Program-made: the position numbers and the translations under genes
The notes under the pieces: model-generated
The model's database searches: none
Seen by the model: only the letters and a program-made list of their open reading frames with translations
Told to the model about the DNA's origin: nothing
Origin: Planktothrix sp. FACHB-1365
GTDB lineage: Bacteria > Cyanobacteriota > Cyanobacteriia > Cyanobacteriales > Microcoleaceae
Assembly: GCF_014697575.1 (NCBI RefSeq)
Contig: NZ_JACJSC010000008.1
Span: 1 to 29,074, forward strand
Direction of reading: 5' to 3'
DNA length: 29,074 bases
Part shown: piece after piece, positions 23,039 to 29,074 of the stretch
How positions within the stretch are numbered: the first letter of the stretch is position 1
How the letters are laid out: every line of letters starts with the position of its first letter

Positions 23039-23128
23039 TCTGATTCTTTATTAGATTCGCTGTTGAATTTGTATAAAGAACGGGTTGATCAGATCCAAAT
23101 TATACCCAAAGTGCTCAGGAATTGGGGA
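23039..23128 (+). pseudogene. Degenerate duplicate of the sqdB 3' end (gene remnant)
   Basis: A ~90-nt segment is about 85% identical to sqdB 20956-21055, with a 9-nt deletion. It translates to [25 protein letters not shown], versus [28 protein letters not shown] in SqdB. The track's 63-aa ORF (23036-23227, TTG start) is this remnant. Confidence 0.6.
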
Positions 23129-26100
23129 AAGGTTGATAGGCTAATAACTCTTGGGATATCAATTGTAAAATCTGCTCTTGATGACTATCCAAAAACAGAT
23201 GTTGACCATCAACCTGATGTAGCTTAAATGACTTGTTAGTATGAACGCCCCAAGCGGAAAGATGGTCTTGATTCAAAAATTTATCCCCACAACCCACAAA
23301 GCTAGTAATAGGACAATCTAGCGGTTTTTCTTCTGTGTAAGAATAGTGATCCTTTTGGAGCACAGATGCTACTTTCAAGGAATTTAGCAACATCAGTAAA
23401 AATGGATCATCTTCTCCAACAGATTTAGAGAGTTCTATATTCGTTAAATCTTTCAAGAACTTGAGTAAATCGGCGTGAGAAAGGTTTTCTAAGGAAGGAT
23501 AGGGGTAAGGAAGTTGGGGAGCGTGTTGAGCCCCGACAAAGAAATGAATCGGTTGCTTATGATGATGACGACGCAAATAACGACACAGTTCAAAATTAAT
23601 TAATGCTCCTAAACTATGACCATAAAAAGCAAATTCCAGATTAAGATAAGGTAACAAAAATTCTGCCAAATCTGCCACTAAGGGAGTCAGATCCTCAAAA
23701 GTCGGTTGACTTCCAGTATATGTTTGAGGAGCAAGCTGGAGGCTATAAACTTCAATATCTGGTGGTAGACTATTTGACCAATCTTTAAACACAGAAATAT
23801 CTCCTCCCCCATGAGGAAGACAAAAAAGACGCAACTTAGCATTGGGTTTTCCTTGACGATCAATAATCCATTTGGGTGAGGTTTGTGACGGTTCTAAATT
23901 AATTAACGGTTTCTCTTTTACTGTCAACGATTGATTAAGATGACAATCAGATGATACCCTCATTAACTCAGATTTTTCCTTGAGTTTTTTCAGGGAATAG
24001 AGAGAAGCCATAATAGAATCTGCATCAATTCCAAAGTCAATTAAACAAGCAATTTCATCAACTCCAATAGCTTGTAATTGTTGCACCATTAACTCACAAC
24101 TTTCGGGCGTACCAATTAAAGCGCTAGTTTGAAAATAACGCTCAAAAGCATAAGCCAATAAATGTTCTCTTTCTTTGGACTCCAAACCCTCCAGATTCGT
24201 AATTCCATGTCTCCACAGATTCACAGAACTTTCTAAATAATCAGTAAATGGCTTCCTGACTTTATGACGCACTAAATTCATATCTTCACCAATGAAAGTA
24301 TGCAGCATCAAAGTCACTTGTCCCGCCTCCGCATCATAACCATTTTTTGCCAATGACTCTCGATAACAAGCAATTTTTTCGGCTAATTCTTCAATGGGTT
24401 GGAACAGAAGTGCAGTTAAAACATTAGCCCCCATCGCACCCGTTTCAACAAATCTTTCTTTTCCCCCAGTACAAGTAATCCAAATCGCTATTTCCTGTTG
24501 TTTAGGTAGGGGATAAATCCGAGTTTCAGTTTCTTTACCCATACCATTTTGTAACAAAATTGATTCACCTTGCCACAACTTCTGTACAGTTTTAATCCCA
24601 GAAAACATCACTTCTGCACTATTAGTAAATTGATTAGGCGCTAAAACAAAATCATTTGGGTTCCAACCCCGCGCAAAAGCAACATCTACACGCCCTTGGG
24701 AAAGGTTATCCACCACCGCCCATTCTTCAGCCACTCGGATAGGATTATGTAGAGGTAAAACCACACTACCCGCACGGATACGAATGCGATCTGTTACCAT
24801 TGCCAGAGCAGAACCCAAAACAGCAGGATTGGGGTAGAGTCCACCAAAAGCATGAAAATGGCGTTCAGGTATCCAAACCGCACTAAAGCCATGTTTATCA
24901 GCAAATTGACTACTTTCTATTAATAATCTGTACTTGTCATCTTTGAATTCAGCTTCATTACTCGCAAAATATAATAAGCTAAATTGCATCGCTTTTTTGC
25001 CAACGGGGAATGGACTGATTAACTTTCTGTGCGCCTCTTCAACCGTTGAAACTGGGTTTTCTTGCTCGCCAGCTAAGTGCAGCGCTAAAGATTCAATAGT
25101 CGGAAAATTCCAAACAATTGTGGCTTCTAAGGAACGTCCGAGCAATTGTTCTAAATCTTTAGCTAATTTTACTGCTCCTATGGATTTGAGTCCATAATCC
25201 AGAAAAGATTTTCCTGATTTGCTATTGTCTGTTAATTGAATTTCTCCGGGTAAATTTTGATGCAGCCAATTGACTATCCAATTCTGAATTGATTCGGCTG
25301 TAGGAGTCAAAACTAATGAAGCTAAATCGTCAGTAGAATCAGAATTTAGAGTTGTTTTTAAATCGGGGTTTGATGGAGTTTCAATACTATTTTGACAAGC
25401 TATTTCTGGGGTTGATACTGGGTTTGATAATGGGGTGGTTTGGTAAAAACTATTGGCATCTTGATCAAACCAGTATCGTTGTTTTTGGAAGGGATAAGTT
25501 GGTAGTAATTGCCAATTTCGAGGATAATCCCGATCAAAACCCTGCCAATCTACAGGAACTCCCTGTAAATATAAAGTTGCTAAATTTTGCAGGAGTTGTA
25601 GCCAGTCTGACCCATCGGAACTAGCCCCCGTTAACCAAACCCCCACACCTGGATCTAAACACTCTCTACCCATTGCCAAAAGTAGAGATTGGGGGCCTAC
25701 CTCCACAAAGACTTTATAACCTTGATGATCAAGAGTTTTAATGCTATCAGCAAATCGGACTGGCTGCTGAATCTGATTGCACCAATATTCAGGAGTTGCG
25801 ATTTCTGCTTGAATGGGCTGTGCCGTAATGGGAGAAATCATCCTAATTTTTGGGGATGAATAAGTTATGGTTGAAGCAATTTGTTTAAAGGCTGTAGCGA
25901 CGGGTTCCATTAAAGGAGAATGAAAAGCTAGATTGTAATTTAATTTTCGGGTTTTAATCTTATCATTTTTAAAATTTCCGATGACGGCCTCAACTGCCTC
26001 AATTTCACCCGATATAATGATATGTTTGGGACTGTTGACGGCGGCGATCGCCACCTTATCGATATAAGGTGCAATAGCAGTTTCCACCTGGGTCACATCC

Positions 26101-28106: not shown

Positions 28107-28345
28107 AAAAATATTCTTTATTTATTGCTTGAGAATTGTTAGTAATAACCATAGTGACAGCTAGGAGAATAGCTGAATTAGGATTTTACCACTTCTGCGC
28201 GATCTTGGAGCAATGCCTCTTAAAATACTTAATCTTCTATTATAATATCAAGCTTAATCAGGTATATTGTAGAATGACTCGAAATAAGTAGTCAGAGCAT
28301 GACCAAGTATCTACTTGCCGTTAAATCAACATTCCTTAATAAATT

Positions 28346-29074
28346 ATGACTATCACAGTCAATGTTCCAGAAGTACAAACTGAAACAAAACCAACTTTGA
28401 ACACTTTACTGTTAATTCCCCTAGCAGTATTTATGTTGTCTCTAGCACCAATATTTATCAGAGTCAGCGAACAAGAAATTAGTCCTAATGCTACAGTCTT
28501 TAATCGGTTTTTGATTTCCACTGTCATCCTTGGGGTTTGGGAGATCATCACAATTATCAGTAGTAAAGTATCCCAGAAACCCCCTAAACCCCAGGAGTCT
28601 TGGACTCTTCAGGATATAGGATTATTTGTACTAGCTGCGGGTTTTGGTGCGGCTAACTTAACGGCTTGGGCTTGGTCTTTAACTCAAACCAATATTGCTA
28701 ATTCCAATTTATTGCATAATTTCACCCCATTCTTTGCCACTTTAGGCGGTTGGCTGTTTTTAAAACACAGGTTTGACAGCAAATTTATTATGGGTTTGAT
28801 TTTAGCTTCAGTCGGTGCGTTAACTATTGGTTTTGAAGATTTTAACTTAACGAGCACTCATTTTAGAGGAGATGCGATCGCTTTACTTTCATCTGTATTT
28901 TATGCGGGCAATGCTCTGTGTGCAGAAAAACTACGAGCTAAGTTTTCGGCAACAACTATCATATTATGGAGTTGTTTGTTCAGAACTCTTTGGCTGTTAC
29001 CCATAACTTTGATTTTTGATGATCAAGTTTTTCCTATTTCCGTGAATGGATGGTTAGCCGTAATTTCCCTCGCC
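28346..29074 (+). CDS. EamA/DMT-family transporter, 3'-truncated at the window end
   Basis: The ATG at 28346 opens an ORF that continues to the window end (243 aa seen). Multiple TM helices and EamA-like segments are visible (LSLAPIFIRV, LGGWLFLKHRF). It is divergent from the PKS gene, with a 240-bp shared upstream region. Confidence 0.7.
   Translation, partial: MTITVNVPEVQTETKPTLNTLLLIPLAVFMLSLAPIFIRVSEQEISPNATVFNRFLISTVILGVWEIITIISSKVSQKPPKPQESWTLQDIGLFVLAAGFGAANLTAWAWSLTQTNIANSNLLHNFTPFFATLGGWLFLKHRFDSKFIMGLILASVGALTIGFEDFNLTSTHFRGDAIALLSSVFYAGNALCAEKLRAKFSATTIILWSCLFRTLWLLPITLIFDDQVFPISVNGWLAVISLA

Follow-up and report, generated by a model that had tools for sequence, protein, structure and literature searches.

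A one-module polyketide synthase with an embedded luciferase-like monooxygenase in Planktothrix, and the proposed modified-fatty-acid gene island to which it very probably belongs

The stretch of Planktothrix sp. FACHB-1365 analysed here (contig NZ_JACJSC010000008.1, positions 1 to 29,074, 29,074 nucleotides, termed the window) ends with a large type I polyketide synthase (PKS) gene and the first part of a divergent EamA-family transporter gene. The PKS is a single module, in which a ketosynthase (KS), an acyltransferase (AT) and an acyl carrier protein (ACP) are followed by a luciferase-like monooxygenase (LLM) and a thioesterase (TE). Orthologous loci indicate that this gene very probably belongs to a conserved island, about 20 kb in size, which continues past the end of the window. 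The features of the locus are as follows.

23115–28106, minus strand: type I PKS gene, 1663 codons plus stop, KS-AT-ACP-LLM-TE (list of open reading frames (ORFs), translation, Pfam and NCBIfam)
26826–28106, minus strand: KS, residues 1–427, condensing type (PF00109, 304.9 bits; PF02801, 137.6 bits)
Residues 428–529, minus strand: KS–AT linker (CurL/RhiE-type linker models)
25647–26519, minus strand: AT, residues 530–820, malonyl-type, GYSLGE motif (PF00698, 209.6 bits at residues 532–818)
25047–25286, minus strand: ACP, residues 941–1020, Ser975 in GLKS (PF00550, 30.1 bits at residues 966–1011)
23973–24989, minus strand: flavin mononucleotide (FMN)-dependent LLM, residues 1040–1378 (TIGR04020, 495.8 bits; PF00296, 137.7 bits)
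23118–23849, minus strand: TE, residues 1420–1663, type-II-TE-like (PF00975, 105.1 bits at residues 1426–1652)
28107–28345, no strand: divergent PKS–EamA intergenic region of 239 bp, presumed shared promoter region (from the sequence)
28346–29074, plus strand: EamA/DMT transporter gene, 5′ part (243 of 326 codons), cut by the window end (PF00892)

The PKS ORF is uninterrupted. Its 1663 residues agree at 100% with an NCBI entry for FACHB-1365, 'type I polyketide synthase', which excludes a frameshift artefact. The KS lies at the start of the protein; its PF00109 and PF02801 matches are well above the cut-offs, and its catalytic triad, Cys172 (DTACSSS), His307 (ETHGT) and His347 (SIGHLE), sits in motifs kept in all orthologues. 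Residues 821–940 form an ordinary post-AT linker and a low-complexity spacer. The phosphopantetheine-bearing Ser975 of the ACP is present in all family members, with the Lys of GLKS replacing the usual Asp, and the TE has the triad Ser1498/Asp1608/His1636 and a GHSLG motif. Pfam and NCBIfam detect no ketoreductase (KR), dehydratase (DH), enoylreductase (ER), loading or docking domain in the 1663 residues, and thereby support the domain order, free of reductive and loading domains, proposed in a preliminary description of the window.

The best single-module NCBIfam equivalog points to the FadD32/Pks13 mycolic system (663.9 bits), in which a fatty-acid-AMP ligase (FAAL) likewise passes a long acyl chain to a single KS-AT-ACP-TE. 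The score is, however, far under the 2100-bit cut-off of the Pks13 model (NF040607), and Pks13 has an N-terminal ACP and a carboxyacyl-type AT, both absent here, and no LLM; the likeness is an architectural analogy only. The Pks13, PfaA and sulfolipid Pks2 equivalogs were all rejected on score.

The remainder of the island is visible in orthologous loci. Nucleotide identity between the window and the colinear region of Planktothrix tepida PCC 9214 is about 96%. In that genome (locus L001) the EamA gene is followed by genes for an FA_hydroxylase-family protein (FAH), a GCS2-family ligase (GshA), a glutaredoxin (Grx), an FAD-linked oxidase (GlcD-like), a FAAL and two desaturases, at which the locus ends. 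A P. mougeotii-type contig (L007) carries the PKS on the minus strand, then EamA, FAH, GshA, Grx (minus strand), the GlcD-like oxidase, the FAAL, four desaturases (Des1–4), an ACP and a DUF302 protein, followed by unrelated transporters. Two fully colinear JGI contigs (L003 and L004) have the order FAAL, four desaturases, ACP, PKS, EamA, FAH, GshA, Grx, GlcD, DUF302, and Anabaena sp. UHCC 0187 (L010) has the same set in a third order, with its FAAL–Des–ACP–DUF302 arm inverted and gcvT, gcvH, rubA, ycf48 and psbE on its left flank. The sqdB and cpcT neighbours named in the preliminary description are indeed present, but they are merely one flank of the island, replaced in Anabaena by the gcvTH-rubA-ycf48-psbE genes.

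In FACHB-1365, the PKS (MBD2482708) and Des1 (MBD2482715) lie on the same 194,281-bp contig according to NCBI accession numbering, and their seven-gene spacing equals that of P. tepida (CUR34224 to CUR34232); the genes of this strain past position 29074 are placed from close orthologues and accession order, not from its own DNA. A distant variant on another JGI contig (L005), with a PKS that is 57% identical, has the order desaturase, ACP, KS-(dead AT)-ACP-LLM-TE, a PhpK-like B12 radical-SAM methyltransferase, an adenylation–peptidyl carrier protein–TE protein (A-PCP-TE), DUF2000, a 459-residue GCS2 ligase, a type II TE (TEII) and a FAAL.

These loci bear on the first alternative, namely that the PKS is a self-contained orphan that takes up an ordinary fatty acyl-ACP or acyl-CoA and delivers a small oxidised acid for export by EamA. 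The EamA gene is always adjacent to the PKS, and inside the window there is no biosynthetic partner among the other genes (cpcT, an sqdB-like epimerase, STAND/TPR genes, an RTX hydrolase and similar). Against this, in all sufficiently long genomes and contigs no more than about 10 kb separates the PKS from a FAAL, desaturases and a dedicated ACP, despite three gene orders and different flanks; the FACHB-1365 desaturase is only seven genes away on the same contig; and the distant L005 variant keeps the desaturase–ACP pair directly upstream of the PKS, with a FAAL nearby. A self-contained PKS is thus very unlikely. The orphan look is a window-edge artefact: 'stand-alone' holds inside the window only, which ends within the second gene of the cluster, and the biosynthetic genes that were said to be missing nearby (FAAL, desaturases and ACP) lie beyond the window end in the orthologous loci.

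To date, the island is known from Planktothrix sp. FACHB-1365, P. tepida, P. pseudagardhii, P. mougeotii, Anabaena UHCC 0187, Aphanizomenon CS-733/32, Dolichospermum LEGE 00240 (the contig of which lacks FAH) and several metagenome-assembled genomes (MAGs) and metagenomes. A scan of 185,579 species representatives returned the island in 3 of them, with no Planktothrix contig among the hits. The island appears to be horizontally mobile; GC content does not mark it.

Literature searches on the KS-AT-ACP-LLM-TE architecture, on cyanobacterial polyyne clusters and on the strain names found no assigned product, in agreement with the earlier statement that no characterised pathway matches. The small PKS clusters of P. 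tepida PCC 9214 are given only as the unnamed PPL2 and PPL3 (Pancrace 2017), and Anabaena UHCC 0187 was reported to encode 'no known BGCs' (biosynthetic gene clusters; Osterholm 2020). We looked at the nocuolin A (noc) cluster and rejected it; this cluster has two FAALs, an NRPS (non-ribosomal peptide synthetase) and N-oxygenase-type tailoring, and neither desaturases nor an LLM-PKS.

The part of the island that is expected to load the PKS consists of the FAAL, the desaturases and the small ACP. The FAAL matches NF004509 and FadD32-type models and scores as a fatty-acid-AMP ligase. An ACP of 90–105 residues is found after the desaturases in L003, L007, L010 and L005. The idea that a fatty-acyl starter is supplied in trans, already put forward in the preliminary description, is judged right. 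The four tandem PF00487 desaturases represent four orthogroups, 45–53% identical to each other and each 72–87% identical across three cluster contexts. Des1–4 all have His boxes one and two; the third (HNxHH) is present in Des1, Des3 and Des4 and was not detected in Des2. Des1 is 61–68% identical to a desaturase of Moorena producens encoded in a FAAL-desaturase-ACP-methyltransferase-PKS cassette of the JamABC arrangement.

The same four desaturase orthogroups, with a FAAL and an ACP, recur on a Xenococcaceae MAG contig (L009) directly behind an NRPS module of the order formyltransferase–condensation–adenylation–PCP. As this four-desaturase set is joined there to an NRPS, the 'tetrad' is a reusable cyanobacterial unit, and the arrangement suggests a lipopeptide that would use the same desaturated starter.

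In proteobacteria, the minimal polyyne set comprises a FAAL, a thioesterase, a dedicated ACP and three desaturases that act together, assisted by rubredoxin or ferritin, and desaturation takes place on the ACP-bound chain (PMC9828172). With JamABC and the polyyne core (cay/pgn), the island shares a stand-alone FAAL, a dedicated ACP, tandem desaturases of the JamB lineage, a thiotemplated logic and a terminal TE activity. It differs in having four desaturase orthogroups rather than one or three, and in PKS extension and predicted alpha-oxygenation before release; compared with cay and pgn, its TE exists only as the C-terminal domain of the PKS, and rubredoxin and ferritin are missing. The rubA gene beside the Anabaena island is part of the conserved rubA-ycf48-psbE block. 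By analogy with these systems, Des1–4 may possibly form triple bonds. No polyyne cluster had been assigned in cyanobacteria, and the genes for fischerellin were still unknown in 2021.

The AT of the PKS has decayed in several orthologues. In the window it is full-length, with Gln538 (GQG), Ser626 (GYSLGE), Arg651 and His729 (LAFH) all present, and its best solved relative is the malonyl-specific AT of CurL (4MZ0, 314 bits). Tyr replaces the His of GHSxG in all members, and the Ser is changed to Cys in one orthologue and to Gly in three; the motif is GYCIGE in a JGI orthologue. At least four differently bounded AT deletions of 40–100 residues remove the small subdomain and the AFH histidine in orthologues, with AT changes in L010, L006/P0005, L012, L007, P0006, P0052 and P0061. 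A PKS form of 1586–1590 residues, found in Anabaena UHCC 0187, Aphanizomenon CS-733/32 and a Dolichospermum MAG, is short of about 85 residues, the small subdomain and the AFH histidine among them, and its GQG is degenerate. The P. mougeotii PKS has a separate lesion of about 40 residues, though it falls in the same 90% cluster as the window protein, and P0006, P0052 and P0061 show further deletions with other boundaries and a GYGVGE motif. The KS, ACP, LLM and TE are intact in all full-length members; P0052 and P0061, which are partial, stop short of the TE. Because the AT has decayed independently in several orthologues, loading of the extender in trans is suggested. The AT would then be dispensable, with malonyl supplied presumably by FabD.

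Such losses could also be the first sign that the whole locus is a decaying, non-functional remnant. This would fit the number of AT deletions and active-site losses (at least four independent ones) and the IS605 element in the promoter region of P. tepida. It is difficult to reconcile with the AT of the window, which is full-length with all catalytic residues, with the long intact ORFs of all orthologues, with the strong conservation of KS, LLM and TE in the orthologues P0002–P0005, and with the AT-deleted 1586-residue form itself, which occurs as 25 near-identical sequences from many samples. We therefore regard a remnant as hardly credible; AT decay does not mean a dead locus.

The LLM called between the ACP and the TE in the preliminary description is borne out by profile searches. 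It matches TIGR04020, the MupA/Atu3671 family, with 495.8 bits against a cut-off of 244.45, and covers the full model (1–341). It is about 57% identical to the Ox domain of PuwE in PDB entry 6KET (419.8 bits, full length), for which our literature search found no structure paper, and 50–56% identical to the LLMs of KS-AT-ACP-LLM-aminotransferase PKSs of the microginin and puwainaphycin type. It is also the best-conserved domain of the PKS family (79–98%). Among the close orthologues P0002–P0005, which come from two cyanobacterial orders, identities are 85–99% for the KS, 87–98% for the LLM and 70–93% for the TE; for the most distant full-length member, P0006, they are 79% for the LLM, 67% for the KS, 59% for the ACP, 56% for the TE and 50% for the AT. 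LLM domains in assembly lines had been called rare. An exhaustive HMMER search with the LLM and TE as query, in which representatives stand for 50%-identity clusters, instead yields 2583 representatives at E ≤ 1e-30. Such domains are thus common; the rare feature is the colinear ACP-LLM-TE ending.

The Ox and AmT domains of PuwE are held responsible for a 3-amino-2-hydroxy acyl unit (PMC4219810). Alpha-hydroxylation has been reconstituted for MupA; besides MupA itself, the reaction depends on a beta-keto substrate, on the cognate ACP and on an FMN reductase (PMC10952193). Because the KS-AT-ACP of the window is without KR, DH and ER, an ACP-bound 3-oxoacyl thioester is expected, and we infer that the module would present the LLM with a beta-keto thioester on the ACP, as MupA requires. 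The PKS resembles PuwE and MicA–MicD, of the puwainaphycin and microginin pathways, in its cis-AT KS-AT-ACP without KR, its feed by a stand-alone FAAL and ACP, and its embedded TIGR04020 LLM. By contrast, neither the PKS nor the main island contains a class III aminotransferase (PF00202), condensation or adenylation domain, and there is no downstream NRPS; the LLM is followed by a TE, and the chain would end as an acid rather than a lipopeptide. With MupA, of the mupirocin trans-AT PKS, the LLM shares its NCBIfam family; MupA needs an external flavin reductase, and the island does not encode a reductase either. MupA, however, is free-standing and acts in trans on a multimodular trans-AT line that continues with KS0, whereas the LLM described here is fused in cis within a one-module cis-AT PKS that continues with a TE.

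Group C luciferase-like flavoenzymes include Baeyer–Villiger-type oxygenases. The LLM might perform other chemistry, such as Baeyer–Villiger insertion, oxidative C–C cleavage or hydroxylation of a non-keto chain, leading to an ester, a shortened acid or a plain 2-hydroxy acid. The MupA study also lists Baeyer–Villiger oxidation among flavin monooxygenase reactions (PMC10952193), and LLM-TE cassettes are found behind FAAL-ACP without a KS, hence without a beta-keto group. However, the closest relatives, the PuwE Ox domain (57%) and the MupA family (496 bits), are both tied to alpha-hydroxylation, and a KS without a KR yields precisely the beta-keto substrate that MupA requires. Other chemistry is on this evidence unlikely, and alpha-hydroxylation of a beta-keto thioester is the reading that we carry forward.

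The TE has RedJ (3QMV/3QMW), RifR and TesA as its best solved relatives. RedJ is a TEII-like enzyme that releases chains. The TEII-like domain of CylH, by contrast, is an editing domain, and the chain is released by a type III PKS; AjuTE and JerTE are TEII-like yet terminate synthesis (PMC5707447). CylH, from the cylindrocyclophane pathway, is otherwise close to the present PKS, as it too is a cyanobacterial one-module KS-AT-ACP ending that forms a beta-ketoacyl-ACP and carries a type-II-like C-terminal TE related to RifR and RedJ. It differs in that its release partner, the type III PKS CylI, has no counterpart here, and in that the island PKS has an LLM between the ACP and the TE.

The same HMMER search found the colinear LLM-TE pair only in this PKS family and in a few uncharacterised proteins, with 39–49% identity. 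These other proteins (P0412–P0416 and P0547) have the architectures FAAL-ACP-LLM-TE, FAAL-ACAD-ACP-LLM-TE (for example, in Rheinheimera) or LLM-TE alone. From its distribution, the LLM-TE pair appears to be an evolutionary unit that can stand behind different chain-building front ends.

The TE could nevertheless be an editing type II domain as in CylH, the chain leaving through another enzyme or through nucleophilic attack by an amine or a thiol, perhaps assisted by the GCS2-family ligase. RifR and RedJ are the best structural relatives in both cases, and a GCS2-family ligase is present in both cluster versions (the GshA paralogue in one and the different 459-residue GCS2 protein of L005 in the other). 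Yet none of the island versions encodes a type III PKS, a condensation domain or another off-loading enzyme, the LLM and TE are co-inherited across very different upstream architectures, as befits a pair that hydroxylates and releases, and AjuTE, JerTE and RedJ are all TEII-like and release chains. We consider an editing TE quite unlikely. Hydrolytic release by the TE is favoured, because the LLM and TE are co-inherited and no other off-loading enzyme is conserved in the island.

Next to the PKS, the EamA gene is divergent, as described earlier, starting at 28346 on the plus strand, 239 bp away. In the intergenic region there are two weak sigma-70-like matches on the minus strand, facing the PKS, that do not exceed chance level; promoter and terminator scans gave chance-level matches only. 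In P. tepida, an IS605-family TnpB gene (411 residues) is inserted between the PKS and EamA genes (L001, 8458–9880), where the window has only the 239 bp. EamA is the most conserved gene of the island, with 87–100% identity beside every orthologous PKS. Homologues of 50–58% identity in nine other cyanobacteria (L013–L029 and others) are followed by a distinct 449-residue GCS2-family ligase and not by a PKS, a recurrent pairing of transporter and ligase, and in seven of these nine a TauD-like dioxygenase precedes the EamA homologue. Instead of serving the polyketide, EamA may thus be tied to the GCS2 ligase and form part of a module for thiols or amino acids.

The island GshA is located at 5102–6223 in L001, 17651–18790 in L003, 5032–6156 in L007 and 12076–13215 in L010, and adjoins grx and the GlcD-like FAD oxidase gene. 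On the cyanobacterial gshA equivalog this GCS2 protein reaches 550 bits, and the oxidase reaches 564 bits on glcD. Only two 90%-clusters are close to the island GshA (99% and 90% identity), and they are the island copies of Planktothrix, Anabaena, Dolichospermum and Aphanizomenon; any other GshA from cyanobacteria is at most 66% identical and has 383–384 residues, compared with 373–379 in the island. The gshA-grx-glcD block stands between both biosynthetic arms in Planktothrix and Anabaena, and moves along with them between different flanks. That these are housekeeping neighbours was rejected on the strength of the GshA divergence and the co-movement of the block. Because the island copies are about 90% identical across genera, versus at most 66% elsewhere, and because the block moves with the arms, we assign gshA to the island as a putative divergent paralogue. 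According to one study, polyynes select for resistant copies of their target embedded in the BGC (PMC9098870). Together, the thiol and oxidase genes and EamA would most plausibly serve export and/or thiol-based self-protection against an electrophilic product.

We propose that the ORF is the single extension and release module of a modified-fatty-acid island, and give this overall explanation a probability of roughly 0.6. The chemistry and accessory roles set out here are predicted from gene and domain content, synteny and the PuwE/MupA-type homology. In this pathway, the stand-alone FAAL would load a fatty acid onto the dedicated small ACP, and the four JamB-like membrane desaturases would unsaturate the ACP-bound chain, possibly up to triple bonds by analogy with JamABC and the polyyne 'desaturase triad'. 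The KS of the PKS would then take over the chain and condense it with malonyl-ACP, the malonyl group being provided by its own AT in FACHB-1365 and presumably by FabD in the AT-deleted relatives. Without a KR, the 3-oxoacyl-S-ACP would persist, and the LLM would hydroxylate C2 with FMNH2 from an unlinked reductase. Finally, the type-II-like TE would hydrolyse the thioester to a 2-hydroxy-3-oxo acid, which may decarboxylate to a 1-hydroxy-2-ketone, and the FA hydroxylase may add a further hydroxyl group to the chain. We hold the succession of extension, alpha-hydroxylation and hydrolysis with slightly better than even confidence. Such a product is in keeping with the oxidised acid (alpha-hydroxy or beta-keto, possibly decarboxylated) anticipated by the preliminary description, a suggestion that we judge right.

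Several observations weigh against the pathway as proposed. The island (L007, L010 and others) contains no rubredoxin or ferritin-type electron donor, and no flavin reductase gene is found in it (L003/L004, L007 and L010). The sequences of Des1–4 do not separate an acetylenase from a desaturase. The GYS in place of GHS and the deletion of the AT in many orthologues make the source of the extender uncertain. The relatives of FAAL-ACP-LLM-TE type imply that the cassette can act without a beta-keto group, and this makes the substrate of the LLM less certain, and the TEII-like C-terminal domain of CylH is an editing rather than a releasing one (PMC5707447).

A more far-reaching version of the proposal is tentative and, taken as a whole, rather doubtful. 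It holds that the island would be the first cyanobacterial polyyne-type pathway, with a new 'hydroxylate-and-release' ACP-LLM-TE ending, and that it would make a highly electrophilic polyunsaturated lipid with a 2-hydroxy-3-oxo (or alpha-ketol or dicarbonyl) group. The gshA, glutaredoxin, GlcD-like 2-hydroxy-acid oxidase and EamA genes would form a dedicated thiol module, either building a conjugate of the lipid with gamma-Glu-Cys or serving as protective or resistant copies indicative of its cellular target, and the product might be an allelochemical or toxin. The parts are known, namely JamABC/polyyne-type loading, a PuwE/MupA-type alpha-hydroxylase and a CylH-like KS-AT-ACP-TEII ending; we found no description of these parts combined in the literature.

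Other observations concern the rest of the window, which contains no tRNAs or Rfam families. An ORF of 592 codons without a Pfam match (21154–22932, plus strand) contains a 24-bp tandem repeat of about 22 copies at 21787–22321, encoding Gln/Glu-rich octapeptides; its P. tepida orthologue has 656 residues, and the copy number therefore varies between strains. At 14542–15687 (plus strand), an RTX-repeat protein has an N-terminal M23 peptidase, and at the same position P. tepida has a CHAP domain with RTX repeats. Nucleotide colinearity between the two genomes breaks exactly over the N-terminal domain (about 14547–15103), which looks like a swap of the catalytic domain. There are three sets of NB-ARC/STAND NTPase genes: those at 7784–10535 and 15835–18578 are NB-ARC/TPR pairs, and that at 11028–14352 consists of an NB-ARC and a Ser/Thr kinase-TPR gene. 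The two ORFs of the last set overlap by 23 bp, and their P. tepida equivalent is annotated as one NB-ARC-kinase-TPR protein of 881 residues.

The locus illustrates that a gene belonging to a cluster can be mistaken for an orphan when the window ends close to it. At about 20 kb, the island is compact enough for direct cloning and expression. It offers a natural experiment on the dispensability of the AT in a cis-AT module, and it contains an ACP-LLM-TE termination cassette, as yet uncharacterised, that other architectures also use. The BGC-linked paralogue of glutamate–cysteine ligase could guide studies of mode of action and self-resistance. Cyanobacterial polyyne and alkyne lipid pathways beyond JamABC are essentially unmapped, and the genera in which the island occurs (Aphanizomenon, Dolichospermum, Anabaena and Planktothrix) dominate harmful freshwater blooms. 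A lipid from these bloom genera that is probably reactive would be of ecological, and possibly toxicological, relevance and, if the polyyne reading is true, bloom-forming cyanobacteria could be making an allelochemical or toxin that has so far gone unrecognised.

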